A stretch of 44,583 bases of DNA from Promethearchaeia archaeon. GTDB taxonomy: Archaea > Asgardarchaeota > Lokiarchaeia > Sigyniarchaeales > SOKP01. The stretch covers positions 1-44,583 of the forward strand of contig JAWOCD010000072.1 in assembly GCA_046483985.1 (NCBI GenBank). Reading direction: 5' to 3'. A program made the position numbers and the translations under genes. A model generated the notes under the pieces. It was not told the origin of the DNA, searched no databases, and worked only from the letters and a program-made list of their open reading frames with translations. This document shows positions 1 to 30,291 of this stretch, piece after piece; positions within the stretch are counted from its first letter, which is position 1, and each line of letters opens with the position of its first letter.

Positions 1-774
1 CCGGGCATCAGGTATCGCTTTAACCGTATGACGGTGGATGCTCCGACACATGAATTTTACCCGGATGTGCTGGACTGGGCGGTGAAACATCGCATAAACA
101 TTGGGGCGGGCTTCCCGGAGATTATAATCGGTATAATCCAATTCCACATTATCTATATCCCCTTCCTTATTGAGAACTTCCACGGTTAAATCAAAATCAG
201 TTCCCCGATAAGTGGAATAGATTCCCTTCTCATAGATGGGGGTTAATTCCTGATTAAAATTGCTATCTTTTCCCCAGACATTTACTATCCGAGGAGATGG
301 GTTATTAATATCAAGATTAAAGTTAAAATTTGTCACTTCTTCGTTATTCCTATAAGTTAAGTAAGCCACACATTTATCAGTTGCTACATCGAACTTATGA
401 GTTGCGTTCCACTCCTTATTATCTGAACTGTCGAGGTCTATTATGATATCTTCGCTTTCATGTTCTACAGTAATATTCACGTCATAGTCCTCAATTCCAG
501 AGAGATCAGGATCTGTCAAGGAGAAAAAGAGGGTATCGTTTTGAAAAAGGTAAAACGTTCCATTCCTGTATATTTTTGTATCATTTATCTTGAATGTACT
601 TACGTTTACGTTAGTACTCGACCTCGGAGAGTCGTACTTTGAGGTGTCATCTTCATCTTTACTCGCTGTTGTTTTTTCTAAGTTATTTGGAATATCTAAA
701 AACATTGCATGCATCGGCGCCAAAAATAGTAGTAGTAAAAATATTCCGCATAACTGTCTAATACGTTTTTGCAT
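1..774 (-). CDS. Partial secreted/cell-surface Ig-like-repeat protein (3' end runs off the window or into foreign sequence)
   Basis: ATG at 774 (minus strand) begins MQKRIRQLCGIFLLLLFLAPMHA (signal-like). Frame is open to position 1. Acidic with many N-x-T/S sequons. Segment NNPSPRIVNVW..YRGTDFDLTVEV resembles ENAAPVIHSL..YRTEKCEVEVNV of the 567-aa protein. Not in the ORF track because it has no stop. Confidence 0.8.
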   Translation of the reverse strand, partial: MQKRIRQLCGIFLLLLFLAPMHAMFLDIPNNLEKTTASKDEDDTSKYDSPRSSTNVNVSTFKINDTKIYRNGTFYLFQNDTLFFSLTDPDLSGIEDYDVNITVEHESEDIIIDLDSSDNKEWNATHKFDVATDKCVAYLTYRNNEEVTNFNFNLDINNPSPRIVNVWGKDSNFNQELTPIYEKGIYSTYRGTDFDLTVEVLNKEGDIDNVELDYTDYNLREARPNVYAMFHRPVQHIRVKFMCRSIHRHTVKAIPDAR

Positions 775-1083: not shown

Positions 1084-4000
1084 ATGTTGAAAAAACGAAT
1101 AACATTGATAGTTATGTTTGCATTAGTATCCACATCTACTCCGTTTCTATATCAATATGTAATCGAACCGAGAGTTGATGGTGCTAATGTATCGCTTGAA
1201 ATAAATTCGATGCTTTATAACGGCGATGAAAGCGGTGACGAAGCCACTGGGTTTTCAGTGTATTTAACCTTAAAGAACGATGAGGATAACGAGGTAGTAT
1301 TAAGCCCAATTGAATGCGATGTCTATTATAGATCTGGAGAGAATTACCGGTTGATCGGGGAATTGACTACAGATACCGACTATGTGATTCCCGCAAACTC
1401 CGAGGTTTCTAGTGAGGCATCCGGAACGAATGCAGAACGAACCGATGAGAATAAGAGAACTCACAATATAAACCAAAATATTAAAGGACTGCTCAAAATA
1501 TCTAAGAAGTCCGGATTTGTCGATGGGGCAAACGATGCTTTTGTTTCATTAATTAATGATGGAACCATCGATCTCAAAATAAAGGGCAGTTCTCAATACG
1601 GACCTATCTCGATTCCTTTTGAACATGAAGAAGATGTCAAATTAAATTTAGAAATTTGGGATAGGGATTTGGAACTAAAGGATGTGTTTCTTTACCAAGG
1701 TGAAACCGGGAATGTTGATGAAAAAACCTTCATCATGCATACAAAAATGCAAAATCCCAGTAACCTTCCCTTGATAATAAGGGATTTTCAATTGGATTTC
1801 TACAATGACACGGACACCATAGTTGATCCGTTAACCCCAGAGGAACAAGTTGGATGGGGGCTTGATAGTGAGGATATCGCACAATCAATTGATCCTACTA
1901 ATACGAGTTCTCAGTTGAATGAAATCTATTTGGATGGCTATGATTACTACAGAATGGATCCGTTTGAAGAGACGGACCTATTTTTCGCGTTTAATTACAC
2001 TAATCCAGAAAAACCAGATTTTAACGGAAACATTAAGTGGTTTTTAACCAAATTATTGGATGAGAAAATAATTAAAGGAGTAACCATTAAAGGAGCTGCC
2101 GGATTGATCATAGGGCAAGAAGATAAAGGGTTTCCTGTGGATATGCACGATGAAGAAGACCATCTCAACATCGACGATATCGATATATATCAACAAAGTA
2201 TAAATACTCCGAAGGCGATGTTTGAAAACTTTTCTGTTGGAGATATTTCTATGAACGGTCTAAAAGTCAATACAAAAACCAAAGAGACTACCGTTGACAT
2301 GCAAGCCAATTTAACTCTTCGCAATCCCTATCGGTTTTCCTACGATGTTAGTGATTTTGCAGCGCTATACAAACATGAAGATGGGGGGGAGTTTGGCGAA
2401 ACTATAAATGAAACCTCAGCTGTCGTGGAGAAAGCTAAAAGAGTTTGGTCAGAATCTGAACAAGAATATCTTATTTCTCCGTCAAAAGCTCAATTACCCC
2501 TAAGTCTAACCACCACCTTCGACACCAGTGAAGATACGGCGGGAATTTTAAAAGTGGTGGAAGATTTGGGCGGCGATCCGGACTTATTGAATTTATCGAA
2601 CCCGTTTTGGATAGATAAAAATTCTCCTGAATATGAGCAGTGTCCGCTGCAAACGATTGAATATTTAATCTCACCTTCGGAAGGCGATTCGGTCAATCCG
2701 ATGACTTTAATGAACGAGGTGTCCCTGTTAGCACATGATAAGGTTTATCAACCGCTGGAAGGAGGGCATTTCGGACAAAAGGATAGAGATCCAACCAAGG
2801 TACAAAGCCAAGACGAGGAGGAAACGGCAATGCCGTATATTGGCGGCTCTTCCTTTCCTTATTCCGCTGAGGATTATTTGGCAGAGCCAGTAGATGTTGA
2901 AGAATGGGAAACTGACTTCTACAATACGGATATTAGGTCGCCAAACCAGTACGAAATTATTAAGAATACCTTAGATGATAATGGGGATTATTTCCCCCAC
3001 GATGATGATATAATAATGGGAGGAAGCTTAGAAGGAGCGATCTATGAATGGACGGATGCGGTAAAAACCGGAAATCCAAAGGATAGTACAGAAGGCCTAA
3101 CGTGGAGAGTTTATGAATCTGGTGGGCCTACCTGGGGTCACAGTTACGATTGGGTAGGATCTGCTTATGGAGATAGAGGTTATACCTTTGGTATGAGCCT
3201 AGATGAAGGAAATAATGTGATGGCATCGCAGAATTTTACCCTTGATGAGACGCTCTTTACAGATTCCGTTAAAACATCGGATTATGGGTTTGGTGAGAAC
3301 ATTGAAGAGGTCACCTTAAGCGCTTCCTATAAATATCTGGAAGAAAGTTATACAGAGGATGATGCGGCACTTCTCTTCAGCTGGTTTGATCCTGCTTCGG
3401 AAGAATATAGTTATGATAGATCCCTAGAGGTTGATGATGAAGAGCCCATGACAAGTGATGTGGGATTTGGAAGAGCCGGGTGGGAACTTCCCACCACAGA
3501 TGAATCAGAGTGGAATCAATTTTCCGTTGACCTTACAGAAGATTTTACGGATCGATTAGATAAATATTTGGATAACGAAAATGACACTGACTATTTGAAA
3601 GGAGAGATAAGTATAGGAGGAAGCCCTTCCGGAAGTGAGTCCTTAAAAGCTCATTTCGACGATATTGCCCTTCAAATTAAATACAAAGACCATGATCCAG
3701 AAAATTCTACGGGGGCGCTTGAATTACAAGAATTGTTTGATTATCTACAATCCGTGGATTCTGAAAAGGGTGACATGTTTAATCTCTTTGATGACTTGTC
3801 CTATGAAGGAGATATCGACGCAGTGGATTTCTGGAACTATACATCGGGAGACTCAAACGAGCTGGAAGAGGGTATGAATTTCTTTAGGTTTCTTGAATTT
3901 TTAGACGTACCGATTACTTCCCTCACCGATATATTACAGAATCAATATAAGGATCTTGAGATAGGGGAGCCTGCCAACTTTCTGGAGGCGCTCACTCAAA

Positions 4001-6090
4001 CTAGGTATCGGATTCAAACCCCGGAAGTTAAAAAAGAAGATAATACCGACACTTCGTATGGACCTCGTGAGGAAACAGATGACTATTGGGTCTTAGAAGA
4101 TCCGTATATGTTTTCTCAATCTTTTATGGATACGCTTTATCGAAATATTTTTAATGATAAATTATTTTCGGGAAATGAACTATGGTACTTATTAGAGAAT
4201 TTTGATGTTTCCATGAGTTGGGTGGTAATGTATTTATTAACCCATGGCTGGTCAAAGGATGACATTTTTGACGTGTTAGAAGCCTTGGGTTTTGGAAAAG
4301 AAACGAAAGAAGACTTTATAAGCGGTAGAGAAACAGGTACGCTTGAATTTCAAGTTGAACTCCATGTGGAAGTGTACGGGGACGAAGATCTTAGATATCC
4401 TACATTCACCTATGATATGGGAGATGTGATTATGGACGGCCAAGAGCAAATATTTGAATACCTAATTGCGGACTATACGGATGGAACAAACTTAGTTTAC
4501 AGCCATGGTGAGTTCGATGACGCGGATTCCGAAACTGTTTCGGGATCGGTCTATTGGGGAATTGTAAGCTACACGGCCACTGTGACTCCGGAAGAGTTCA
4601 CGCTAAAAATTAATATGGATCCTGGCGAGGCTGGCGGGACAATCGCCTCTCCTGATTCTGATTCCGATGATTATGACGAAGATTTTAAGGACGACTATTT
4701 CGATTTTAATAGGGATGGTTTGACCAGGGCGGGTGCAAAGCAACTCGCGCAAATGCTTAGGCTGGATTATAAATTTGAAGGCGAAACGTTTATACGACAA
4801 GGAGGGGATATTGTATCCTTATTTCAATTTTTAGATCAATATTGGTTCGGACATAGAGGTGGAGATGATGGGGTAGATTATAATTCTATGACCCTATTGA
4901 ATGCGTTTAACGTGTCAAGCCGTGATTTTGTTGATGTTATTACAGGATATAACAGAACGGCGGATGAATGGGATACAAATGAAAATGGAAGAGCGGACGA
5001 ATGGAGAGCTCCTAACTATTATGCCTCAGAAGATGAGCGAGACGCTTGGGGAGGATGGGGAACTAACTTTCGAGATAATCGGCTGTTTTATAACCCTGAT
5101 GGGAGTGATTATCCTAGTATTGGTCAAGAGGAAGGTGCAATTATTTGGTCAGATTCTCCTGATTTCGCTGACGATGACTATGAAGGTCATAGAGAGGGTG
5201 AGATTGACGTGGGTACGGATGAGATCAATATGGGAGCACCTCCGATTGTTGACGTTATGGATATGCTCTTTTGGTTAAGTGAAACGTATGGAAGACCCAC
5301 GCCAAATGAACTATTTGAATGGTTAGTTGGAGAGCTTGACGACGAGTATTACGATGCCATTGATCCGTTTGCCGAGAGTAAGCCTGGAAAAGTAGGAGAA
5401 GACTCATATAAAGGGGAGGGTAGTTTTGACGGTCTGACCAATTCGAAGGTCTGGCATCTATTCAGAAATGGCTCTTTAAATCCTACGGGCTTTTTTGAGT
5501 GGATGGAAAAAGAAAAATCCATTAGCAGTTTTAAATTTTTATCCAAATTGGAGGATACCACGGGATTATTTACTCCCGTAGATCTGCTCTTTTTCGCAAC
5601 AAGCCCTAATTTAGTTCGATATATTGACGATTCATTGTCATTCATGTATCATGATGCATTAAACTCGGGGACAGATGATCCAAATGATGATTTATGGGAC
5701 TATTTTGATCAAGAGAATTTCAACGAAGAAGAATTCTTTACTCTTTTGGATTCTGCGGGTTTTAATATATTCGATATTTTTACGGAATTACATATAGACC
5801 CTGCAAGCTGGTTGACCGTTTTGGATGAAGTGTATGGTTTACTGCCGATTGAAGTTATAAAACGAATGAAAAAGTTAGATCCAACAGCAGCGCAATATAT
5901 TGAACTGGATGAGGCTAATGGAAAAACGGTACTAGATATTTCTGCAAGTCTAACTATTACCTATAGTGGAATTGAATTAAAGGATATTGATGCGACAATA
6001 GCTCCTGATAAAGTCTTAACAGCCAAAGAGCACTTTGAGAACTTTATCCCACCGGAAGTCCTTCGTGGAGACAATTTCGAAATCATATAA
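1084..6090 (+). CDS. Giant acidic N-terminally anchored extracellular protein with tandem LEA_2/WHy-like domains, a jelly-roll-like insert and short helical repeats
   Basis: N-terminal hydrophobic helix. Three LEA_2-like starts: SVYLTLKNDEDNEVVLSPIECDVYY, MHTKMQNPSNLPLIIRDFQLDFY, QANLTLRNPYRFSYDVSDF. D/E-rich, 1668 aa. Confidence 0.75.
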   Translation: MLKKRITLIVMFALVSTSTPFLYQYVIEPRVDGANVSLEINSMLYNGDESGDEATGFSVYLTLKNDEDNEVVLSPIECDVYYRSGENYRLIGELTTDTDYVIPANSEVSSEASGTNAERTDENKRTHNINQNIKGLLKISKKSGFVDGANDAFVSLINDGTIDLKIKGSSQYGPISIPFEHEEDVKLNLEIWDRDLELKDVFLYQGETGNVDEKTFIMHTKMQNPSNLPLIIRDFQLDFYNDTDTIVDPLTPEEQVGWGLDSEDIAQSIDPTNTSSQLNEIYLDGYDYYRMDPFEETDLFFAFNYTNPEKPDFNGNIKWFLTKLLDEKIIKGVTIKGAAGLIIGQEDKGFPVDMHDEEDHLNIDDIDIYQQSINTPKAMFENFSVGDISMNGLKVNTKTKETTVDMQANLTLRNPYRFSYDVSDFAALYKHEDGGEFGETINETSAVVEKAKRVWSESEQEYLISPSKAQLPLSLTTTFDTSEDTAGILKVVEDLGGDPDLLNLSNPFWIDKNSPEYEQCPLQTIEYLISPSEGDSVNPMTLMNEVSLLAHDKVYQPLEGGHFGQKDRDPTKVQSQDEEETAMPYIGGSSFPYSAEDYLAEPVDVEEWETDFYNTDIRSPNQYEIIKNTLDDNGDYFPHDDDIIMGGSLEGAIYEWTDAVKTGNPKDSTEGLTWRVYESGGPTWGHSYDWVGSAYGDRGYTFGMSLDEGNNVMASQNFTLDETLFTDSVKTSDYGFGENIEEVTLSASYKYLEESYTEDDAALLFSWFDPASEEYSYDRSLEVDDEEPMTSDVGFGRAGWELPTTDESEWNQFSVDLTEDFTDRLDKYLDNENDTDYLKGEISIGGSPSGSESLKAHFDDIALQIKYKDHDPENSTGALELQELFDYLQSVDSEKGDMFNLFDDLSYEGDIDAVDFWNYTSGDSNELEEGMNFFRFLEFLDVPITSLTDILQNQYKDLEIGEPANFLEALTQTRYRIQTPEVKKEDNTDTSYGPREETDDYWVLEDPYMFSQSFMDTLYRNIFNDKLFSGNELWYLLENFDVSMSWVVMYLLTHGWSKDDIFDVLEALGFGKETKEDFISGRETGTLEFQVELHVEVYGDEDLRYPTFTYDMGDVIMDGQEQIFEYLIADYTDGTNLVYSHGEFDDADSETVSGSVYWGIVSYTATVTPEEFTLKINMDPGEAGGTIASPDSDSDDYDEDFKDDYFDFNRDGLTRAGAKQLAQMLRLDYKFEGETFIRQGGDIVSLFQFLDQYWFGHRGGDDGVDYNSMTLLNAFNVSSRDFVDVITGYNRTADEWDTNENGRADEWRAPNYYASEDERDAWGGWGTNFRDNRLFYNPDGSDYPSIGQEEGAIIWSDSPDFADDDYEGHREGEIDVGTDEINMGAPPIVDVMDMLFWLSETYGRPTPNELFEWLVGELDDEYYDAIDPFAESKPGKVGEDSYKGEGSFDGLTNSKVWHLFRNGSLNPTGFFEWMEKEKSISSFKFLSKLEDTTGLFTPVDLLFFATSPNLVRYIDDSLSFMYHDALNSGTDDPNDDLWDYFDQENFNEEEFFTLLDSAGFNIFDIFTELHIDPASWLTVLDEVYGLLPIEVIKRMKKLDPTAAQYIELDEANGKTVLDISASLTITYSGIELKDIDATIAPDKVLTAKEHFENFIPPEVLRGDNFEII

Positions 6091-6627: not shown

Positions 6628-9600
6628 ATGATGAATATTAAAGTTATTAACTCACACAAAAATAAAAGAAAGGGAAAAAAGTCCTTAAGAACCCTTTTTT
6701 GTCTGTTTTTTATAATGATTTTTGTTCTTAGTTCATTAAATTTAAATTATCCTCTTCACGATAATAATATCCAGGGAGAAAATCATTCTCCTGATAAATT
6801 AAATAAAGAAAGCCCTAAATCCGCTTTAAATTACTCCGATATAAAAGATCCGTTCACTGAGAACTTCGATCTGATGGAAGAGTTTTTTTCCGGGTATAAG
6901 TCCGATCTAAATTTTCGATTTAGACAAGGGAACGAATCGGGAAATATTATAGACGACACCATTTATTCGCTCGATAATCTGTTTCTCTATGATTCGTTGT
7001 TAGGGGAAAGAAGTTGCTGGGATATTCTGTATTCATATGCTTATGCAAGAGATTCTGCATTATATTTTGAAAAAAATATGACGAATCACAAATACGGATT
7101 TATAAAAAGTATAAACGGCACTGATGCTAATGGTGAAATAATAGACGGAAATAGATATTTATTAGATAATTTAATGCCAATCTTCTTATTTATAAATAAC
7201 TTTGATGATAGTACCATAGGAACGGAAGTTGACGGAAACAGTGCACTGGATTTTCTTGAGGAAGCTTTTGAACTTCTTAACTCTACTCAATTTTGGGATG
7301 AAACAAATAAAGGATTCCATGAATATAATTCATCTTCCGGAAACAAATATGCAATGGAAAATCTTTATGCTGTTCGAGCAATGCTCAAGCTTCAAGAAAC
7401 ATCTAAACTAAGCCACGAAATTAAAGAAAGAGCCGCATCTTTGGCGAATCAAACAATATCCAAGATAATGGAGGAGTTATGGGATACTGAGAATAAAGGT
7501 TTTAAACACTTCCGCGATGAATCTTGGGGAGATGGGGGAGCAGATAGTACTGATAAGTATTTAGAAGAAAACGCATTGGGGCTCATTACTTTGGTTGAGT
7601 ATTGGAAATATTCAAATAATAAAACTTACCTTCAGGATGCAGTTTCATTATATGAGAAGATCGTTGATGAATTATGGAATGAAACTTATAACGCCTTTGA
7701 ATATTACCGAGAGAATGATTGGGATGTGGACACTAGTGATATTGAGTCTGCCCGGAAAATTGACCTTAAAGCTAATGCTCTGATGATGAGAGCGTGTTCA
7801 GAACTTTTCGAAGTGACCGCAAATGACACCTATCATAACAAATCCTTAGAACTATATAATACCTTTGAAAGCTCATTTTTTGATACCTCTGTAAATGCAT
7901 ATAATAAATCGCTAGGAACGGTGGAGGACGGAAATAAAAATCTGTTATATAATCTTGAACTCTGCTCTGCCTATTTAGACGCTAAATCAATTTATAATAG
8001 ATCTTCATTAAATGCTGCTTTTAATAAATCAACGCCTGAATTTATCGTTAATGAGGAGGACCTCAAAGTGACTTCAAATTATACGTTAGATCTCTTCGAA
8101 TCAACCCAATATAATATCACGGGAGCAGATATTACCTATATTTTCAGATATCCCAATGGGACCATTTTTAACGAAACAGAAGAGCAAATTAAGGCTAAAT
8201 CTGTGGGGTCTATATCCGAAAAAATAAAAATAACTTGTGAGAATGATACCAACGGCGATCTTAATAATACCTATTTTAACCTCACTACTCCATCCCAAAA
8301 ATATCTTGTTTGGTTTAATCTTAGCGAATCAGGAGGTTCTGCACCTGAACCCGATAGCGATAGAGAACCGATTTCTATCGACACAATTGATGAAAATGCA
8401 ACAAAAGAACAAGTGGCGGCAAATTTAACCCAAATCCTTGATGAATACGAATACGAGAATGAAAATATTTTCGATGTGGAGCGAAATGATGAAAATATTA
8501 ACATTACAAATGTTGAACCGGGAATTGTGAAGGACACCTCATATGGTGATGTAACTACAAATTTTATATTTACAACCCTACAGCAAGGAGAAAATAAAAC
8601 AATCACTAGTCATGAATTAATTTATCCAATTACGGAAGATTTGCCCTTAAGTAGTAGCCCAAATCTCTATTCTATAACGATTATTGCCAATAAAAGTTTC
8701 TTCAAATTCGCGACCGAAACGCTTCATTTTGGTGTGGATTCGGGATTAGAAGCTGACACAATGGAGGGAATGGAGGGAACGGACCTATACCAAGGACAAA
8801 CCTTGAATATAACCCTTCCTATTAACAGTGACCGAGCTTCGAATATTACATTAAATGCATCATTGGAATCCCAGAATATGAAGAACCAGAGTGAAGAGGT
8901 AGAGGTGATTGCCGGCGATACGACAAATATTGAATTTAATTTGACAGCGTTATATGATGCAGATAGTGGGACCCAACCGTTTACCATTACGTTAAGACAC
9001 GGAGGTTATTTCTACTTGGAAGTTGAAGAATCTGTTGAGATTATAAGCGCTCTCGAGTATTCTAACTTAGTTTATCAAAAACAAGCCGTTTCTGGAGAGA
9101 CTTCCAAATTATCATTTAATCTAAAAAATCTCTTGCCCGATAATCAACAAAAAGTTAATTTGAGTATGGAAGGCGAATTCATCAAAAAAACCGAAAAAAA
9201 TATTAGTTTAGATGAAGAGGAAACAAAATATCTCTCATATACCTTAGAATTAAAGGATAATCTAAATGAAAGCTCTATTTCTGTAGGTTTGGAATTTAGA
9301 AAAGGCGAGAAAGTTATGATTTCAGAAATGTTACATATAGAAATTGTACGTGGCATAGAAATCAGTGATACCTCTTTTCCCGAAAAATGTGCTCAAGGTC
9401 GAGGGATTGTATTTACTATCTCCATTAAAAATAACCTTGAAGAGACTCAACCTTTCAAATTATTTATAAATGGTGAGGAAACGGAGGCGAGGATTACTCA
9501 ATTAACTCCTGGATCAAATACATTGGAAAAGGAGATTACTCCTACAATAAATCCCTACGAATTTGGAGAAAGGGGGTATATGATTGAAATAAAAGATGCT

Positions 9601-9756
9601 GATGGCAATACCTTATATAAGGTTTATAAAGATTTAGAAATAACTTTATCAACTGTTAACTTAGTGCTTTTTTACCTCATTCCAATTATTGCTCCAATTG
9701 GAATCTTTCTATATTATAAAAACAAGGATATTAAAACTCAACTATTAAGGAGATAA
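6628..9756 (+). CDS. Membrane-anchored extracellular protein: six-hairpin glycosidase-like (alpha/alpha)6 barrel, Ig-like domains and C-terminal TM
   Basis: N-terminal hydrophobic helix. Six recurring helix starts (IYSLDN, RYLLDN, KYAMEN, KYLEEN, IDLKAN, KNLLYN) and repeated W(D/N)E..KGF motifs. Beta-rich C-terminal half and TM LVLFYLIPIIAPIGIFLYY. Confidence 0.7.
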   Translation: MMNIKVINSHKNKRKGKKSLRTLFCLFFIMIFVLSSLNLNYPLHDNNIQGENHSPDKLNKESPKSALNYSDIKDPFTENFDLMEEFFSGYKSDLNFRFRQGNESGNIIDDTIYSLDNLFLYDSLLGERSCWDILYSYAYARDSALYFEKNMTNHKYGFIKSINGTDANGEIIDGNRYLLDNLMPIFLFINNFDDSTIGTEVDGNSALDFLEEAFELLNSTQFWDETNKGFHEYNSSSGNKYAMENLYAVRAMLKLQETSKLSHEIKERAASLANQTISKIMEELWDTENKGFKHFRDESWGDGGADSTDKYLEENALGLITLVEYWKYSNNKTYLQDAVSLYEKIVDELWNETYNAFEYYRENDWDVDTSDIESARKIDLKANALMMRACSELFEVTANDTYHNKSLELYNTFESSFFDTSVNAYNKSLGTVEDGNKNLLYNLELCSAYLDAKSIYNRSSLNAAFNKSTPEFIVNEEDLKVTSNYTLDLFESTQYNITGADITYIFRYPNGTIFNETEEQIKAKSVGSISEKIKITCENDTNGDLNNTYFNLTTPSQKYLVWFNLSESGGSAPEPDSDREPISIDTIDENATKEQVAANLTQILDEYEYENENIFDVERNDENINITNVEPGIVKDTSYGDVTTNFIFTTLQQGENKTITSHELIYPITEDLPLSSSPNLYSITIIANKSFFKFATETLHFGVDSGLEADTMEGMEGTDLYQGQTLNITLPINSDRASNITLNASLESQNMKNQSEEVEVIAGDTTNIEFNLTALYDADSGTQPFTITLRHGGYFYLEVEESVEIISALEYSNLVYQKQAVSGETSKLSFNLKNLLPDNQQKVNLSMEGEFIKKTEKNISLDEEETKYLSYTLELKDNLNESSISVGLEFRKGEKVMISEMLHIEIVRGIEISDTSFPEKCAQGRGIVFTISIKNNLEETQPFKLFINGEETEARITQLTPGSNTLEKEITPTINPYEFGERGYMIEIKDADGNTLYKVYKDLEITLSTVNLVLFYLIPIIAPIGIFLYYKNKDIKTQLLRR

Positions 9757-9762
9757 TTGTAA

Positions 9763-11466
9763 ATGGAAAAAAAGAAAATATTCATAGGACTCATATTATT
9801 ATTGTTTTTTGGGCAGATCTACCTCAGTTCATTATATAATTTTGATACAACCACTTATTCCGAGGAGAAATCCCCTTTAGAAGAATTTAAAGAAAGTCCC
9901 GAAAAAGATCTGCCGAAAGTTTCCACTTCAAACCCGACTAAAGCACTGAATTACAGTTCTATTTCAAGGAACCGGTCCGAAGTTAGACGTAGATTCCAAT
10001 CAGTGAACATCACGGTAAATGTATCTGCATATGAAGGGGCGAATCATACTGAAATGTCTATTCATTTTTTTGATGGAACTATTACACGGCTGGAAATGAA
10101 TGAGACGGCAGAAGGAGAAGAGAGATTTTACAAAACTTATACACCTAATGATGATGATCCATTGGGGCTTGCAGAGGTCAACTTTACTATTTACAATGCA
10201 ACGGGTGCAGAATCCGAATGGATTGTACTAAATAACGGCACTACCTACACTAACTTTACGATAAAATCAAGTAGTCTGGCATCTTTAGATAGTTCCGTTT
10301 ATGATCGAGGAGAGGATTTACATGCTTCTCTTATCGTTCAAGAACCGTCTGAATTTACTTGGGATGTCTCCGTGGTTGATGAAAAGCATGAGGATCTCTT
10401 CTTCTTAGGTCATAATTTGAACGATACTTATTTCGAAATCAATGAAAGTTTTACAGACCCTGGCGATTATTACTTAGCAATTAACGTGACCCAAGAGTCG
10501 ACCGGGAACTGGGAAGAAAGTTATTTTCGCTTCCAGATAGAAAATGCAGCCCCGGTAATTCATTCATTAAAGTTTAATCCTTCCAGCGTATATCGCACAG
10601 AAAAATGTGAGGTCGAGGTGAATGTAACTGACCAAGAGACGGATAGTGGTAACTTAAGTGTTACTTTATATTTAGAAGATCCTAATGGGGACATTGACAC
10701 TGAAAGCTTTACCCATGCAGACCAGTTTTTCACGACTGATTTCACCATTGAGGCCGACAAGCCAGCAGGCTATTATAATGTAGAAATAGAGGTAAATGAC
10801 GGAGATTCGGGAACAGATACCTATGAAGATTCGATAATCATAAAAAATAATCCTCCGAAAATTAATTCGTATCAAGTAAATAATCACACTATGGAAGAAC
10901 AGATGAATATTAATTATGGAGAGGATTTAATTTTTGAGTTTAACGTGACCGATGAGGAAGGTCTTGCCTATGTAAAAGTCGCCTTACTGAACGAAGATGA
11001 CGAATGGTTCAACATTACTCGTAAGTATAAGGATAATATGAAGATTACCATCCGCACAGAGGATCTCCTTTCGGGAGATTGGTATGTGTATGTATATGTT
11101 ACTGATACCGACGGAAAGACGGTGGGACTTGACTTTAATTATGATGTCGCCCCGCAGCAGATAAGCCTTATACCGGATTTAATGACTACGATCTTACCAT
11201 GGGTTGCTCTAATTATTGGATTGGGACTTGGTCTTATTATTGGAATTGCCGCGGGAGTACGATTGGGAAAAAAACCAGCAAGGGAAAAAGACACTACACC
11301 AAAAAAACCAGCTGAAACGAAATCTGAGAAGAAATTAAAAAGTTCATTGACAAAAGAAAAGAAGGAAAAAGCCGAGGAAAAACCAGAGCCTTCAGAAATG
11401 GAAGAGGAAACAAAAGAAGAAACGAAAGAGAAAAAACCAGAGAGAAAAATTAAGAGAAAATTATAA
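9763..11466 (+). CDS. Single-pass cell-surface protein with Ig-like repeats and a highly charged cytoplasmic tail
   Basis: Signal-like N-terminus. Repeats N..P.I...V.D.D/E (ENAAPVI, NNPPKI). TM ILPWVALIIGLGLGLIIGIAAGV. K/E-rich tail ending RKIKRKL. Starts 6 bp after the previous gene. Confidence 0.75.
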   Translation: MEKKKIFIGLILLLFFGQIYLSSLYNFDTTTYSEEKSPLEEFKESPEKDLPKVSTSNPTKALNYSSISRNRSEVRRRFQSVNITVNVSAYEGANHTEMSIHFFDGTITRLEMNETAEGEERFYKTYTPNDDDPLGLAEVNFTIYNATGAESEWIVLNNGTTYTNFTIKSSSLASLDSSVYDRGEDLHASLIVQEPSEFTWDVSVVDEKHEDLFFLGHNLNDTYFEINESFTDPGDYYLAINVTQESTGNWEESYFRFQIENAAPVIHSLKFNPSSVYRTEKCEVEVNVTDQETDSGNLSVTLYLEDPNGDIDTESFTHADQFFTTDFTIEADKPAGYYNVEIEVNDGDSGTDTYEDSIIIKNNPPKINSYQVNNHTMEEQMNINYGEDLIFEFNVTDEEGLAYVKVALLNEDDEWFNITRKYKDNMKITIRTEDLLSGDWYVYVYVTDTDGKTVGLDFNYDVAPQQISLIPDLMTTILPWVALIIGLGLGLIIGIAAGVRLGKKPAREKDTTPKKPAETKSEKKLKSSLTKEKKEKAEEKPEPSEMEEETKEETKEKKPERKIKRKL

Positions 11467-11577: not shown

Positions 11578-12495
11578 TTATTCCATTGAGAGGACATCCA
11601 GCAAGTTGTATTGATATTTTCCTAATTCTCCCCCATAATTTCCAGCAGTAATTCTCGTTACCCCGGGAACTTCGACGCACGCCTCAATTCCAACTTTAAT
11701 TGCTTGTTTTACTGCTATTTCCGTTGCGCCATCAATGATTATTTCATAGACGCATTCTTCATTGTCTTCTAATTGGGTGTTCTCAATTTTATCCTTCAGA
11801 GTGGGACAGAGGGGGTCATTCGTGCTTGCGTTGAGGAATTCATATTTGGAGCCAACTTTTGATCCCGACCTTACAATGCCTCCTGGGAAGGGAGTGATCA
11901 CATATTCTACCTCGTCAATGGCTTCAATTGCTTTTTCTGCAGCTTGTAAACCTGATTCTTGATCTTCGGCAACAATCAAGAAATTACCGCCGGCTACTCC
12001 TTTTCCGCCTTTGAAAACGCTTTGGATGATGAATTCACCGTCCATAACCGGTATTTTCCACGCATCGAAGGGATAAGCATCTGTTTCCTCTTCATGTCCA
12101 TCTCCGAAAAATTTGAGGTTATATCCGGCTTTTAGTTCGAACTCTTTTTCTGGTTTCACGGACTCATCAAATGCATCAAAACATGCAGTTGTGGGACAAG
12201 TCAATACGCATTGTCCTAATCTGTTCATTAGGGTGTTATTTACCTCTTTTTGATCTCCAGACATAAAAAACATTAACACCACTCCAGGGCGATTATCTGG
12301 TGTTTCTTCCGCTTCTACAAAACTATCTATCCCTGCTTCTGCATCGCAATGAATTGTGGAGGTTCCATACCCTGTGGCAATTTGAGCACAAGTCTCTAAC
12401 CATTGCTGGTTTGTCGCAGTTACTAAAACTCTTGTAAATTTGTTTCCAAAAGCTTCACAAAAAGTATCCTCTATTTTTACACCATTTAGTTCCAT
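11578..12495 (-). CDS. ftr: Formylmethanofuran--tetrahydromethanopterin N-formyltransferase
   Basis: MELNGVKIEDTFCEAF, CDAEAGID, TPDNRPG, RLGQCVLTCPTT, GVAGGNF, PFPGGIVRSGSKVGSKY, ITAGNYGG are hallmark Ftr motifs. Confidence 0.97.
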   Translation of the reverse strand: MELNGVKIEDTFCEAFGNKFTRVLVTATNQQWLETCAQIATGYGTSTIHCDAEAGIDSFVEAEETPDNRPGVVLMFFMSGDQKEVNNTLMNRLGQCVLTCPTTACFDAFDESVKPEKEFELKAGYNLKFFGDGHEEETDAYPFDAWKIPVMDGEFIIQSVFKGGKGVAGGNFLIVAEDQESGLQAAEKAIEAIDEVEYVITPFPGGIVRSGSKVGSKYEFLNASTNDPLCPTLKDKIENTQLEDNEECVYEIIIDGATEIAVKQAIKVGIEACVEVPGVTRITAGNYGGELGKYQYNLLDVLSME

Positions 12496-12635
12496 TTTTT
12501 TTCACTTTTGAAATATTTATTTATTTTATCACATTATCTGATATACATTTTAATAAAAGAGCATTTTATATAAAATTTTAAAATTCAAAAAAGATTCATA
12601 GTAAATATAAATTCAAATAGAAAACATTTAAAAAG

Positions 12636-13484
12636 TTGAAAAATATGAGTGAAGATAAAATATTAAAGATTGGGGTCCTTAAAAATGGTACCATCGGGTC
12701 TTCTCTTCTACTTTCGTTCTTGCTCGATGAACGTGCAGAGGGAGAGCGGGTAGAATTCAGAGAAGTAACAAGTGGTCCTAAAATGCATCCTGCAGAAGAA
12801 TGTACTGAGACAATGGAAAAGTTATTAGAATTCGAACCTGAATTGCTATTAATGTCCAGCCCAAATGCTGCACTTGAGGGTCCAGAAGCAGCACGTGAAA
12901 TGGTAGGCGATATTCCTACAATTGTGGTGTCTGATGCCCCTGCTAAAAAAGCCGTTGATGAATTTGAAGAGAAAGGCATGGGCTATATCATTGTGATGTG
13001 CGATTCAATGATCGGTGCCCGCCGACCCTTCTTAGACCCGATTGAAATGAGTTTATACAATTCCAATTTGCTCAAGGTTCTTGCAATAACGGGAGTTTTT
13101 AACCTCATGGTTAAAGAATTAAATAAAGTTATCATGGATATGCTTGAGGGGAAAACACCACCCTTACCGCAACTTGTCATCAAAGCGGATAATGCAGTAG
13201 AAGCAGCGAGCTTTGCAAATCCCTATGCAAAAGCAAAAGCTATTGCAGCCTTCGAAATCGCATCAGCAGTTTCGGGACAAACTGGTTATGCTTGTTTTAG
13301 AATGAAAGAGCGAGAGAATTATATGCCTGTCTTAGCTGCTGCACATGAGATGATGAAAACAGCCGCGAATTTATGCGATACTGCTCGGGAAATTGAGAAA
13401 TCGAATGATACTGTCCTACGAGAGCCACATCGCAGAACGCAAGAACTCCTTGCAAAAAGAAAATTGCTTAAAAAAGCAAAATAA
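12636..13484 (+). CDS. mtd: F420-dependent methylenetetrahydromethanopterin dehydrogenase
   Basis: LLDERA, SGPKM.P, SPNAALEGP, DSMIGARR.FLDP.EM, FANPYAKAKA, AAHEM, D.VLR.PH. The true start may be ATG 12645 rather than TTG 12636. Confidence 0.96.
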   Translation: MKNMSEDKILKIGVLKNGTIGSSLLLSFLLDERAEGERVEFREVTSGPKMHPAEECTETMEKLLEFEPELLLMSSPNAALEGPEAAREMVGDIPTIVVSDAPAKKAVDEFEEKGMGYIIVMCDSMIGARRPFLDPIEMSLYNSNLLKVLAITGVFNLMVKELNKVIMDMLEGKTPPLPQLVIKADNAVEAASFANPYAKAKAIAAFEIASAVSGQTGYACFRMKERENYMPVLAAAHEMMKTAANLCDTAREIEKSNDTVLREPHRRTQELLAKRKLLKKAK

Positions 13485-18244: not shown

Positions 18245-19210
18245 ATGAAAGTGATTTTATTTGGACCAGCAAATGCGGGAAAAACATCTTTAATGCGCAC
18301 GACTTGCTTGGGTTATAATTTTATGAAAGTGGCAAATTTGAAACCCACTCGAGGTGTCTCTCGAGAAAACTTTTTATTTCGTGGTATAACTGAGCTTAAC
18401 GTGTGGGATATGGGAGGACAAGAAAAATATATGAATCGTTACTTTTCAGAGACTCAGCGAGAATTCATTTTTTCCGAGGTAACTACGGCAATATTTATGG
18501 TAGATTCTACGGTCGTTGACGAGAAGATTCGAGAGTTATTTGATAGGTTCTTGAAACAGCTATTTGAGTTTTCGCCTCATGTGGATAAAGTGTATGTACT
18601 TATTAATAAAATTGACTTAGACAATTCAAAAGAGGACGAATTGTTTACCTTACTTTCGGAAGATATAAATCCGGAGACCCGAGAAAAGTTGGCATTTACC
18701 CCTGTTTCCGTAAAAGAGGGCTCAGCCCAACATCGTCTCATTGAAATTTTGGATTTTGAAATCCAAAGGAGTACTTTATCCATTCAGAGAATTGGAAAAA
18801 TTAGACATCTCTTAGATGAATTAAAGGCTAGTACTTTATCGGATTATCTTTTATTTAACCAACCCGACGGGCTTTTAATCTCTTCTACTTTTGGTAAATT
18901 TGAAAGTGAACCTTTAGAATTTATGAAGTTTGAGATAGGAACGTTAGATTCCAACATATATCAAATTTACAATAAGATTATGGAGTTAATGCATTACCCT
19001 AAGTCTAAAATGACCCCAATTTCTCTATCGATTATCATTTACGAGTCAGATAATTCCTATGTGTTAGTAAAAGATATAGTAGACAGTTCTGCAGTTTTAA
19101 TGGCAGTTACCAAAAATAAAAAGCATGAAGTCTTTTCTGCCGTAATTCAAGCTCTTAACGGGGAATTGTTTGATAGTTTAAAGAAGTTCTTGCGCACGGC
19201 TGAATTCTAA
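18245..19210 (+). CDS. Rag/Gtr1-like small GTPase with C-terminal roadblock-like domain
   Basis: G1 GPANAGKTS, G2 PTRGV, G3 WDMGGQ followed by Rag-like YMNRYF..QREFIFSEV..IFMVD, G4 NKID. C-terminal LLFNQPDGLLISS ... VLMAVT roadblock pattern. Confidence 0.82.
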   Translation: MKVILFGPANAGKTSLMRTTCLGYNFMKVANLKPTRGVSRENFLFRGITELNVWDMGGQEKYMNRYFSETQREFIFSEVTTAIFMVDSTVVDEKIRELFDRFLKQLFEFSPHVDKVYVLINKIDLDNSKEDELFTLLSEDINPETREKLAFTPVSVKEGSAQHRLIEILDFEIQRSTLSIQRIGKIRHLLDELKASTLSDYLLFNQPDGLLISSTFGKFESEPLEFMKFEIGTLDSNIYQIYNKIMELMHYPKSKMTPISLSIIIYESDNSYVLVKDIVDSSAVLMAVTKNKKHEVFSAVIQALNGELFDSLKKFLRTAEF

Positions 19211-20876: not shown

Positions 20877-21875
20877 ATGCATCATTTAAAAATAAATAAT
20901 TTGGCAAAAAAAATTGTAGAACAAATAATTAACAAAAAGGAAATCTATTCCGCTCAAGTTCAATCGTTAGAAAATGGTGCGACTGTAATTGATATGACAG
21001 AGGCTACTTGGGAAGGCGGAAAATTAGTGGGGGAAATATGTATGGGTGGCTTGGGCACCGTTGAGTTTTCTACTTACGACTTAGATGGGCATTATCTCCC
21101 GAGTGTTAATGTTTACACTTCAGAACCGATTATTTCTTGCATGGCTTCTCAACTTGCAGGGTGGAGCGTGAAATTAAAAAAAGAAGTTGAAGAAGATGGA
21201 GAAGTTAAGAAGAAAACAGTCTTTGATTCTTTAGGATCGGGACCTGCCCGGGCAAAGAGTAAAGCGGAGAAAAAATTATTCGCAGAATTAAATTATGAAG
21301 ACGAATCAGACTGTGCCGTGATCGTTTTTGAAACTTCAAAACGTCCTAATGAAGAAATAATGGAGATTGTAGCAAAAAAATGTCATGTTAATGTTGAAAA
21401 TACATATGCACTCTACGCTCCTACAGCGTGCTTAACGGGGTCGATTCAAGTTGCAGCCCGTATAGTAGAGACAGGAGTACATAAATTGCATGAGATTGAT
21501 TTTCCCTTAGATGTTTTACAAGATGGTTTTGGAACGACAACCGTTGCACCTATTGCTAAAGATGATTTTAGCGCAATGGGAAGGACGAATGATTCTTTAA
21601 TTGCTGGAGGACTAACTTTTTATAATATTAAAGTGGATAAAGATAAAGAAAAAGAGATATTTGAAATGCTTAAGGAGGCTCCGGCAAACACTTCGCCAAG
21701 CTATGGAAAACCTTTCCTCGATATCTTCAAAGAAGTGGATTATCAGTTTTATGAGATTGATCCTGGCTTATTTGCGCCAGCAAAATATACAGTAACAAAT
21801 GTGAAAACGGGGCATTCTCTTACCGTTGGGGAAGTGAATTTAGATCTCTTAAAAGAGTCATACGGTTTAGATTAG
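20877..21875 (+). CDS. mch: Methenyltetrahydromethanopterin cyclohydrolase
   Basis: ENGATVID, EICMGGLG, CMASQLAGW, GSGPARA, APTACLTGSIQVAARIVETGVHK, AMGRTND, YGKPF, FYEIDPGLFAPA. Confidence 0.97.
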   Translation: MHHLKINNLAKKIVEQIINKKEIYSAQVQSLENGATVIDMTEATWEGGKLVGEICMGGLGTVEFSTYDLDGHYLPSVNVYTSEPIISCMASQLAGWSVKLKKEVEEDGEVKKKTVFDSLGSGPARAKSKAEKKLFAELNYEDESDCAVIVFETSKRPNEEIMEIVAKKCHVNVENTYALYAPTACLTGSIQVAARIVETGVHKLHEIDFPLDVLQDGFGTTTVAPIAKDDFSAMGRTNDSLIAGGLTFYNIKVDKDKEKEIFEMLKEAPANTSPSYGKPFLDIFKEVDYQFYEIDPGLFAPAKYTVTNVKTGHSLTVGEVNLDLLKESYGLD

Positions 21876-25632: not shown

Positions 25633-26721
25633 ATGTCTGCTCATAAAGAAATTAAAAACGAGGATAACAGTGGACCCTCAGAACAGAAATCATCTTCTAT
25701 TGAAAAACAGGACGATGTACCCAAGAAGAAAATAAAAAAAGAAGATGTTCCGCATTTCTTCCCTACTTATAGGATAAAAGGGAGCCTCTATTCAGTTCCC
25801 ATTATTATTGTGGTGGTGTGTGCGGGAATTCTTGCTTATCTAACGTATGTCGAAGCGGGGGTCCGAGTTGATGGGACCTATATCTCTGAAGAGCAATATG
25901 GAGCTGCTGGGGGCATTTTAAATGGACTAATTTTCACTGCACTGGCTGCCGTCTCGGCATTTGTTATGATTTTTCTAATAAAGAAATTTGGCATTAATCT
26001 TCTTAAATATTTATTTGGGCTAAGTTTTGGATTCATTGGTTTTTTTCTCTCCTTGTTTTTTTCGCAGATATTTACATACCTTATTTTTATAAATTTTCCT
26101 GAAACAGAGTTTATCGTTTCTACGTATTATCTTATCGTGGAATGGATTTTACCCATCTCAATAGGATTGTTTACTATTGTATTGATCTACAATTACTTCA
26201 CTACAAAATCAATTAAAATAAAGAATTTTATTGTTCTTTACATCGGCTTATTGATTGGAGCGATGATGGGGATCATTATGCCCTTATGGACTACATTAGC
26301 AATATTAATTGGCGTTTCTTTATGGGATATTTTTGCAGTGAAATCTAAGCGTGGACCTATTAAACAGATGATCGATATTGCGGGTTCTTCCTTTCAGCAT
26401 GAGGATCGTGAGGATGTTTCGGGGCTGAACCAAGAGGAAATTCAAGACAAAATTGAAAGTGGGGAATTAATGTATGATACTTCCCATTTAGAAATCGGCA
26501 TTGGGGATTTAGCATTTTATAGCATGCTCACCACCGCAGCATTGCTCCGAACGTCCTCCATAATTGTTATGATTTTTACGGCGACTGCTATAATTATCGG
26601 CACTGGAATTACCATCTCTGGGCTTAAAAGGAATAAAATCCTCCCGGGACTCCCCATCTCCATTTTTCTCGGCATTACCGCAATGCTTATATCATGGGGA
26701 ATCATCATGTTTTTTTCCTGA
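25633..26721 (+). CDS. Presenilin-like GxGD intramembrane aspartyl protease
   Basis: Multiple TM helices. WTT....SLWDIFAV...GPIKQM (YD-equivalent), IGIGDLAFYSML (GxGD), LPGLPISI (PAL-equivalent). Confidence 0.9.
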   Translation: MSAHKEIKNEDNSGPSEQKSSSIEKQDDVPKKKIKKEDVPHFFPTYRIKGSLYSVPIIIVVVCAGILAYLTYVEAGVRVDGTYISEEQYGAAGGILNGLIFTALAAVSAFVMIFLIKKFGINLLKYLFGLSFGFIGFFLSLFFSQIFTYLIFINFPETEFIVSTYYLIVEWILPISIGLFTIVLIYNYFTTKSIKIKNFIVLYIGLLIGAMMGIIMPLWTTLAILIGVSLWDIFAVKSKRGPIKQMIDIAGSSFQHEDREDVSGLNQEEIQDKIESGELMYDTSHLEIGIGDLAFYSMLTTAALLRTSSIIVMIFTATAIIIGTGITISGLKRNKILPGLPISIFLGITAMLISWGIIMFFS

Positions 26722-28541: not shown

Positions 28542-29759
28542 TTAGTTTTCTTTTTCCCGTTGAGAAGGCGATAAAAACGAAGAGTTAAGTGTTATAACCA
28601 AGTCTTGCGAAAATTCATTGAAATTTTTCATCATATTGGGATGAAGATGATCGGGGTTATCTTCCTCTGAATGAATCCTGCCATTCGAGCCAAATATGAT
28701 AAACTCATACCCGTAGAATTTTAATGGGGTATGATCCGTGCTATAGGCAATTAAAGGGGGGATATATACTTCATTTAGTGTTTTTTGATATTTTTCATTT
28801 TGTGTAAGGATCATTTCAGTCTTTTTCTTTAAATGGGGAGAAAATATCTGTTTTGGATAACCTTGTCCATAAAAATAGAGATTTTCCTTTTCGTTGAGAG
28901 CAACTGTATCAACGATAATAAAATAGGTATGTTTCACATCGAATTGACTGTGAAACTCCTTAATGAAATTATATGCTCCAAGATCGCCTGCCTCTTCTGC
29001 GCCAGTAAAGACAAAGGTTAAATTTGTATGGGATAAAGGATTTTGATGAAAATGTTCTAATAAATAAAAGACATTTGACACTCCGGTGGCATTGTCACCA
29101 GTACCGGGCGACTTATTGTCCCGGGTATTGAATATTTGCAAAGAAATAACCAGTGCAATGACAAAACCATAACTGAAAAAAAGGTATGGAATCGAAGAAA
29201 TCACTGAAAAATGATACAACATTATGGTAATGAAAAGATGGAGCGAGAAAAGACTCCCTCCGACTAATCCGAGAAAATATAGGGCTCCAGAGAAGATCGG
29301 ATGTAATTTATGACTAATTGAATCGTAATGAGCAAAAAATACAACATTGGCCCTCGAAACCTCCGAGTGTTGCGCTGAGATCTTTGCGATATAATTTTTG
29401 CTTTTATAGTCTTTTCCCAGATGCAAGACTTTAAAGTGAAGATACTCTCGAATCTGTCTACTATAGAAGGAATAGACAAATAAAATAATTCCTAAAATTA
29501 AGCTCAGATAATATCGGTCGAGAATGATTAGAAAGAAGGTGCTAATGATAAGTAGAGCGGTGATCACATCATAAATGCGCAGTAATGTATTCATATAAAA
29601 CCAAGAATATTTGAATTCTTGCGTTCTATATTCTTCCACCCCCATTCTCTTAAATTCGCTCTCGATAAGTTCTTGTGCCTTCTTTTCGCCTTCTGTTCCC
29701 GCCATACGGGGAAATGATAAGGCTCGAATGAAATCCTCTGAGTATCGGTTATTACTCAT
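28542..29759 (-). CDS. Membrane-embedded M28-family metallopeptidase
   Basis: PRMAGTEGE, AHYDS, GTGDNATG, GAEE.G..GA, VDTV, STDH, IHSEED, with two inserted TM hairpins. Confidence 0.85.
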   Translation of the reverse strand: MSNNRYSEDFIRALSFPRMAGTEGEKKAQELIESEFKRMGVEEYRTQEFKYSWFYMNTLLRIYDVITALLIISTFFLIILDRYYLSLILGIILFVYSFYSRQIREYLHFKVLHLGKDYKSKNYIAKISAQHSEVSRANVVFFAHYDSISHKLHPIFSGALYFLGLVGGSLFSLHLFITIMLYHFSVISSIPYLFFSYGFVIALVISLQIFNTRDNKSPGTGDNATGVSNVFYLLEHFHQNPLSHTNLTFVFTGAEEAGDLGAYNFIKEFHSQFDVKHTYFIIVDTVALNEKENLYFYGQGYPKQIFSPHLKKKTEMILTQNEKYQKTLNEVYIPPLIAYSTDHTPLKFYGYEFIIFGSNGRIHSEEDNPDHLHPNMMKNFNEFSQDLVITLNSSFLSPSQREKEN

Positions 29760-30291
29760 TCTTTTGGTCCTTTTTTTTCAAAATCTCTTTTGCTAGGGTC
29801 CTGAAAATCATTTTATTATTATGCCCCGATTTTGAGGAGGTCTCGAAGAAACCATCTAAGTTATGTTCTTCTTTAAAGTCCTCTCCGTCTTGGTAACTTA
29901 CTGCGCGCTTCAGATCGGCTAAATCCCGTTTTTCTCCTACTAATATAATTACTGGGTCTGACGCGTTTTCTCTAACAATCCCTAACCATTCTGTTAGATT
30001 TTCATAACTTTTATATTGGGTAATATCGTAGCAGAGTAAACAACCAACCGCCCCGCGGGCGTAATTGGGTAAGAAGAATCTGAATCTTTTTTCTCCCGCA
30101 AAGTCCCAAATTTGAAGTTTAACCACCTTTTCATCGAAGTTGATATCATATGTAGCCAAATCTGTACCGATGGTTATTTTTTGGGGGATAAAATTACCCG
30201 TTACAAGTCTCTGAACCATAGTTGATTTGCCCACGCCACCATCGCCGCAGAGAATGGATTTATAAAAATAACTTTCTTTTGACATCGTCAA
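29752..30291 (-). CDS. Rab-like small GTPase
   Basis: GDGGVGKST, TIGTD, KLQIWDFAGEKRF, YARGAVG..L.YDIT, GEKRD, ETSSK. No C-terminal prenylation cysteines. Confidence 0.9.
   Translation of the reverse strand: MTMSKESYFYKSILCGDGGVGKSTMVQRLVTGNFIPQKITIGTDLATYDINFDEKVVKLQIWDFAGEKRFRFFLPNYARGAVGCLLCYDITQYKSYENLTEWLGIVRENASDPVIILVGEKRDLADLKRAVSYQDGEDFKEEHNLDGFFETSSKSGHNNKMIFRTLAKEILKKKDQKNE

Follow-up and report, generated by a model that had tools for sequence, protein, structure and literature searches.

LEA_2 domains are defined by a layout in which a helix comes before the last hairpin, and lipid transfer by them is a prediction (10.1101/2021.03.12.435176). Yeast Tag1 and the fungal DUF3712 (PF12505) concatemers consist of an N-terminal membrane anchor followed by LEA_2-type repeats without gaps. 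Tag1 has three such domains, and nothing resembling a split third domain is described for Tag1 or DUF3712 (Levine 2021). TMEM106B and Vac7 are type II membrane proteins with a single LEA_2 domain. Tandem LEA_2 proteins are also found in archaea: 3BUT and T. litoralis WP_148290494.1 are N-terminally anchored, and proteins of this kind have about 300 amino acids (aa), two domains and a predicted lipid anchor on a cysteine. In bacterial RTX adhesins, Ig-like domains are split, in some cases with one split nested in another, to project carbohydrate-binding modules (CBMs) and further ligand domains (PMC12077191).

We compared these systems with a locus from a Promethearchaeia archaeon. The window, by which we mean the whole stretch of 44,583 nucleotides analysed, contains an ORF that the preliminary description had read as a giant multi-LEA_2 protein with a long insert in its third domain. 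The ORF is real, and the motifs quoted from its product (P0001) lie at aa 161, 333, 410 and 1614. The locus contains the following features:

121-774, minus strand: start (5' end) of the divergent partner gene, which continues on contig C18:1-4869 and encodes ~1650 aa with a signal peptide, Ig-like domains and a C-terminal transmembrane segment (TM)
1084-6090, plus strand: whole gene for P0001, 1668 aa (ORF with homologs)
1084-1179, plus strand: basic N-terminus and short hydrophobic stretch, aa 1-32, a probable uncleaved signal-anchor (from conservation)
1180-1653, plus strand: D1, LEA_2/DUF3712-type domain, aa 33-190 (AlphaFold2, Atlas, HHalign)
1654-2199, plus strand: D2, LEA_2/DUF3712-type domain with loop insertions, aa 191-372 (AlphaFold2, Atlas, HHalign)
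2215-2571, plus strand: N-terminal half of D3, strands 1-5 and helix, aa 378-496 (AlphaFold2, HHalign)
2572-5901, plus strand: nested insert or head, aa 497-1606, 1110 aa (model, mean pLDDT about 80, pTM 0.76)
2734-3693, plus strand: CBM-type (galactose-binding-like) jelly roll, aa ~551-870, interrupted by a loop insert of its own (~560-645)
3715-4317, plus strand: first block of the helical body, aa 878-1078, with aa 976-1078 among the most conserved stretches (model)
4330-4617, plus strand: beta-hairpin domain (two hairpins) that interrupts the helical body at aa 1083-1178 (model)
4972-5001, plus strand: aa 1297-1306, loop of the form Dx[DN]x[DN]G with two conserved Asp after it (motif)
5233-5901, plus strand: second block of the helical body, aa 1384-1606 (model and complex model)
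5902-6087, plus strand: C-terminal half of D3, comprising strands 6-7 at aa 1614-1646 and, packed on strand 1, the C-terminal tail at 1647-1668 (complex model, HHalign)
6628-9756, plus strand: conserved downstream neighbour with a weak (alpha/alpha)6-type match (AGE/GH76-like) and a C-terminal TM

A word and profile search of 1.84 billion proteins returned 21 near-full-length homologs of P0001 (1656-2451 aa, 26-57% identity). Every homolog whose source carries a name came from Promethearchaeota, an assignment consistent with other genes in the window (Ftr, Mtd and small GTPases). The domain order was the same in 22/22 members: anchor, D1, D2, N-terminal half of D3, insert and final two strands. 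P0001 matched no Pfam or NCBIfam model at its cut-off, and a PDB sequence search likewise gave no significant match. The gathering cut-offs of PF03168 and PF12505 were reached neither by P0001 and seven homologs nor by anything in its own genome. Near-identical short pieces of the gene occur in salt-lake RNA-library contigs from two studies, but their runs were picked via this gene, so they do not count as evidence of transcription.

A single N-terminal TM had been proposed for P0001. The stretch is indeed conserved, with P20, Y23, Q24, P29 and R30 retained, but it is short and its hydropathy is weak (Kyte-Doolittle 1.47, against 1.46-2.26 across homologs with a complete start), so the TM label follows from conservation. 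The first 34 aa are 49% identical between homologs, compared with 33% over the entire protein, whereas the signal peptides of neighbouring genes are 21-24% identical, not above the conservation of their own proteins. P0001 has no further candidate TM. Its N-terminus is probably an uncleaved signal-anchor giving a type II topology, with cleavage as the other possibility.

In an AlphaFold2 model of aa 25-880, beta-sandwiches are formed by D1, by D2 and by D3 as far as its fifth strand, with most 10-residue blocks at pLDDT 80-94. A helix precedes the closing hairpin in both D1 and D2 (DSSP). In an Atlas structure search, the top five rows were DUF3712, LEA_2 and Tag1_C clusters (TM-score by match 0.59-0.62, in the D1-D2 region), in line with the proposal of an extracellular Asgard protein structurally closest to Tag1/DUF3712. 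The top feature-based Atlas matches, a lead only, were proteins of the 3BUT/T. litoralis type (0.86). When the PDB was searched with the 856-aa model for solved LEA_2 domains (3BUT, 1XO8, TMEM106B), the lists were taken up by matches to tandem Ig-like chains and to the jelly roll. We then compared the domains by HHalign with a profile of 115 Asgard DUF3712/LEA repeats, taken from PF12505-positive proteins and two weak PF03168 matches; most of the source proteins exceed the PF12505 cut-off. The match was strong for D1 (95.8%, E 7e-9) and moderate for D2 (68%, E 5e-5), while insert segments used as controls gave nothing. Direct HHalign comparisons among D1, D2 and D3, or with a five-repeat reference, were weak, and only the 115-repeat profile was informative. 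An Asn turn motif (N-p-N-like) after strand 2 is found at N65, N224-P225 and N414-P415 in at least 90% of the 22 sequences, with the second Asn lost. [quoted passage not shown]

We next considered D3, whose closing hairpin was thought to appear only at the far C-terminus. N414, P415, Y416 and R417 are conserved in its N-terminal half. Separately, the N-terminal half matched the front of the repeat profile at 26.5% and the C-terminus matched the profile's last two strands at 28.5%; joined in silico, the two halves reached a moderate 73.5% (E 3e-5, 111 columns). When aa 372-570 and aa 1530-1668 were predicted as a complex, the ipSAE was 0.77, a mark attained by 58/80 solved complexes and 2/110 mismatched pairs, while the best of three controls scored 0.00. 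Contact agreement between runs was at least 69% and partner pLDDT at least 72. Residues 425-431 pair antiparallel with 1617-1622, as strands 3 and 6 of the LEA_2 fold do; in the other best-defined contacts, helix 491-496 meets 1608-1616 and strand 1 is touched by the tail (1650, 1665). Since the halves of split domains resemble solved folds and tend to score well through that likeness, the score backs the D3 topology and is silent on affinity. As expected, the C-terminal hairpin was less confident (about 65-67) in a model without most of the N-terminal half. The split is kept in 22/22 near-full-length members. These results, from profiles and models, support a D3 that is opened by a 1110-aa insert and completed by C-terminal strands. 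The preliminary description thus holds for two complete LEA_2-like units and a third one completed from the C-terminus, and for the existence of the insert; its bounds, given as ~2540-5920 at the helix position, shift to about 2572-5901, with the start after helix 488-494. Word searches among proteins of 30-426 aa found no shorter relatives lacking the insert, and 24 relative loci held no shorter LEA_2 gene at the same site.

The groove had been suggested to feed a hydrophobic helical compartment, but the insert is not a single compartment of that kind. Its jelly roll takes up about 320 aa and its beta-hairpin domain about 100 aa, and only 281 residues are helical. Besides these two domains, the head contains 31 short helices that make up a conserved body, together with a probable Ca2+ loop; the inserts of homologs range from 1096 to 1854 aa. 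In structure searches the jelly roll showed the galactose-binding-like fold of beta-sandwich CBMs, although MAM and Eph ligand domains matched it almost as well. Its identity to CBM35, CBM4, CBM16 and CBM61 is 10-17%, and unlike them it carries several long loop inserts; the conserved aromatics are W674, Y688, Y749 and W810. Further modules occur in homologs: P0016 has a LamG domain above the Pfam cut-off in its head, and P0019 and P0021 have about 520 extra aa there with strands that look jelly-roll-like by eye. A jelly roll of the P0001 type is also found at aa ~711-1032 of P0027, a NosD/beta-helix surface protein of 1540 aa with a C-terminal TM, where it lies inside the beta-helix run. Its presence in this unrelated protein suggests that the jelly roll is a mobile surface module.

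The helical body is more conserved than the CBM. Columns conserved in at least 90% of sequences make up 15-21% of its best blocks, compared with 5-9% in the LEA domains and jelly roll. D3 is topped by helices 490-510, on which aa 1561-1598 pack in the complex model. The Dx[DN]x[DN]G loop stands at the same column in 19/22 sequences (27 matches in the family versus 6.6 expected from shuffles) and is probably a Ca2+ site, judging from the motif. An EF-hand reading of the helical body was rejected, as the PROSITE-type pattern gave a single stray match in 22 sequences. Nor did we define a formal repeat unit, the best pair of internal helical repeats reaching a probability of 47%. PDB and BFVD searches gave no clear match to the fold of the helical body, their lists being dominated by the jelly roll, and an Atlas feature search gave no usable match. 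The body is therefore well modelled without a clear fold match, which is insufficient to call the fold new. On the models, P0001 is a clear case of Russian-doll domain nesting.

P0001 shares its probable anchor and gapless LEA_2-type domains with the fungal proteins and its domain number with Tag1, and Tag1/DUF3712 proteins are its top structural matches. It differs from them in lying under the Pfam cut-off and in having its third domain split by an 1100-aa multi-domain head, and it would face the outside of an archaeal cell, Tag1 the vacuole lumen. Compared with TMEM106B and Vac7, it has three domains and no cytoplasmic domain, and its insert is about 30 times longer and folded. Unlike the archaeal tandem LEA_2 proteins, P0001 lacks the anchoring cysteine and carries a giant head. 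With RTX adhesins (e.g. AhLap, PMC12077191) it shares nested splits, a CBM-type domain held out by a beta-sandwich whose last part follows only after the insert, and Ca2+ sites, which are predicted in P0001. However, the extenders in P0001 are LEA_2 rather than Ig, and a large helical body lies between the split domain and the CBM. RTX repeats and a type I secretion signal are absent from its sequence and Pfam scans. We take the likeness to RTX adhesins as an analogy of architecture, not homology.

The P0001 gene was found in 5/400 genomes of the phylum. Its divergent partner encodes 1590-2003 aa across loci, with Ig-like matches and a C-terminal TM. The partner adjoins the P0001 homolog in ten loci and lies a few genes away in G049; one query did not find it in G051 and G185 (80% and 69% complete). 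Neither gene was matched in most relatives, including the single-contig genomes G044 and G055. The downstream neighbour at 6628-9756 was present in 58/61 genomes searched and is therefore a core gene outside the cassette. In 24 relatives without the gene pair, a glycyl-tRNA-synthetase-like gene directly abuts this core gene. We rejected the view of four genes as a single unit, since only two of them are accessory and the other two belong to the core. The same main groups appeared in the trees of the core neighbour and of each cassette gene (10 loci, FastTree, unrooted), a congruence that disfavours recent horizontal transfer and speaks for vertical inheritance accompanied by loss. Most simply, the two genes are an old cassette at one site that was repeatedly lost.

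Several further observations concern the surroundings. The 6628-9756 protein carries about 135 aa (525-660) absent from most relatives, and its barrel region is matched repeatedly within single class-level relatives of ~2000-2500 aa. It is followed at 9763-11466 by a second surface protein with a C-terminal TM. Window positions 1-120 match neither the partner continuation on C18 nor anything else in the genome and are probably a contig-end artefact; an RNA-library contig passes at 121 into C18 sequence, and C18 and C114 overlap at 97.5% identity. Contigs C4 and C182 of G053 (L011, L010) hold two divergent gene copies; this genome has 6% contamination and possibly represents two strains. The regions 11578-13484 and 20877-21875 encode Ftr (Pfam match), an Mtd homolog (assigned by its synteny with L019) and, as read from the sequence, a probable methenyl-H4MPT cyclohydrolase. 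A Gtr/Rag-like GTPase (18245-19210), a Rab-like small GTPase (29752-30291) and a presenilin-like GxGD protease (25633-26721) were assigned from sequence, and all three are usual eukaryote-like genes of Asgard archaea.

What might P0001 do? By analogy with split-domain adhesins, we tentatively favour a capture protein that is anchored in the membrane and displays a ligand-binding head at the surface, a reading to which we give almost an even chance. In the models and profiles, the stalk consists of the probable signal-anchor, the intact LEA_2-type domains D1 and D2, and the split D3, and the compact head buds from the strand 5-6 loop of D3. In an Fn3-like strand order this loop lies at the end remote from the N-terminus. 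The loop would thus point away from the membrane, with the head at the tip. In TMEM106B, the helix 'crowns' the domain (PMC10409496). The CBM-type jelly roll, and the extra lectin-type modules of some homologs, may attach the head to glycans on particles, on matrix or on other cells. As a platform for these modules, the conserved helical body would probably be stabilised by Ca2+ and would probably hold a second binding site, and P0001 would most likely work with its co-inherited Ig-rich partner. Lipid handling would be possible but not required. The split D3, the CBM-type fold, the insertion of more such modules in homolog heads and the nature of the partner, a C-terminally anchored Ig-rich stalk, all argue for capture, and patchy retention in the phylum fits an accessory surface function. 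Against it, glycan docking leaves the higher conservation of the helical body relative to the CBM unexplained, a jelly-roll fold by itself shows no function, and a three-domain stalk is short for an adhesin, with units that are LEA_2-type and not ordinary Ig extenders.

A lipid-capture conduit, close to what the preliminary description envisaged, is a more doubtful reading. Here the CBM and hydrophobic hairpin tips would dock the head on a foreign membrane or lipid particle, a lipid or fatty acid would enter the aromatic-rich helical body, and from there it would travel to the cell's own membrane through the grooves that strands 1 and 7 form in each of the three LEA_2 domains. This would suit the multi-domain DUF3712/Tag1 proteins as nearest predicted structures, the seating of the head on D3 with helices 490-510 bridging both, helices that are 49% hydrophobic and 18.5% aromatic, and the unusually conserved anchor. 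The tips of the beta-hairpin domain are also often hydrophobic, but their run count was below that of shuffles (42 vs 53), so membrane fingers are without statistical support and are a lead only. The groove itself is a difficulty: the TMEM106B crystal structure has no lipid-binding groove and its function is unverified (PMC10409496), plant LEA_2 NMR structures have no open groove, and the C-terminal tail on D3 strand 1 in the complex model may close the groove edge. Moreover, the cassette has no lipid-metabolism gene. Two loci have a gene of the SCP2 sterol-carrier family at a distance of a few genes from the cassette (L072:228-653, L073:1143-1556) and the others do not, and it was not counted for lipid handling because it was seen in two loci only. 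The full joint claim is unlikely: an extracellular Asgard lipid scavenger with a glycan-targeted, aromatic-lined helical chamber of new fold on a Tag1/DUF3712-type rod, pulling lipid from foreign membranes and passing it along LEA_2 grooves to the cell membrane. If true, it would be an archaeal counterpart of the LEA_2 proteins of the lysosome lumen.

We consider a tethered ecto-enzyme decidedly improbable. As in modular glycan- or lipid-degrading enzymes, the helical body would be a catalytic domain of unrecognised fold, the CBM would target the substrate and the LEA_2 domains would be a spacer. A CBM adjoining a conserved domain, as seen here, is the usual layout of a modular enzyme. The helical body has 29 polar columns conserved in at least 90% of sequences, several of them clustered (E1005/D1006/S1011, E1032, D1060/D1063/E1066, D1251/D1265/S1268/D1281 and H1523). 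Yet their density (4.8%) is barely above that of the LEA domains and CBM (3.4-3.5%), many of the conserved Asp, Ser and Thr could be helix caps, and no catalytic motif was recognised in the body. Finally, a structural role in which P0001 and its partner form a surface lattice or spacer, with the head making self or partner contacts and binding no outside ligand, is the least probable: tight co-inheritance with a second giant surface protein beside two core surface genes, the acidic composition and the probable Ca2+ loop would fit it, but most relatives have no match to either gene and the variable lectin-type inserts suggest outward binding.

LEA-type proteins are also found elsewhere in the Asgard phylum. 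PF12505, a nearly all-fungal family, was above cut-off in 13/301 genomes (L090-L104, L067). In the positive proteins, an N-terminal stretch precedes a plain concatemer of 2-7 LEA-type repeats, as in a 918-aa, seven-repeat protein (L092:609-3362) in the 4.36-Mb single-contig genome G044, and ~3000-aa Asgard proteins with 17-20 LEA-type repeats also occur (L098-L100). Our literature search found no paper on Asgard DUF3712 concatemers, which are possibly an unreported counterpart of Tag1/DUF3712, and none linking Asgard archaea with LEA_2, DUF3712 or TMEM106, among literature that included few subscription papers. The genome of P0001 itself encodes a second giant multi-LEA protein of about 2170 aa (C4:573-7142, minus strand), with a charged N-terminal tail of ~115 aa, one TM and several divergent LEA-type repeats. 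It is 27% identical to a 1929-aa frame in G049 (L066:3-5792) and has no BLAST match to the P0001 family.

The P0001 family is a Tag1/DUF3712-like rod with a giant nested head, an architecture that is surprising for a specialist, encoded by an accessory gene. Because most relatives lack the cassette, it informs Asgard surface diversity more than a core ancestral machine. TMEM106B, Vac7 and Tag1 carry their LEA_2 domains in lumenal parts, and the molecular job of these domains is unproven. The Asgard cell exterior is topologically equal to the lysosome lumen, and the P0001 family and the plainer DUF3712 concatemers provide archaeal test cases from the lineage closest to eukaryotes.
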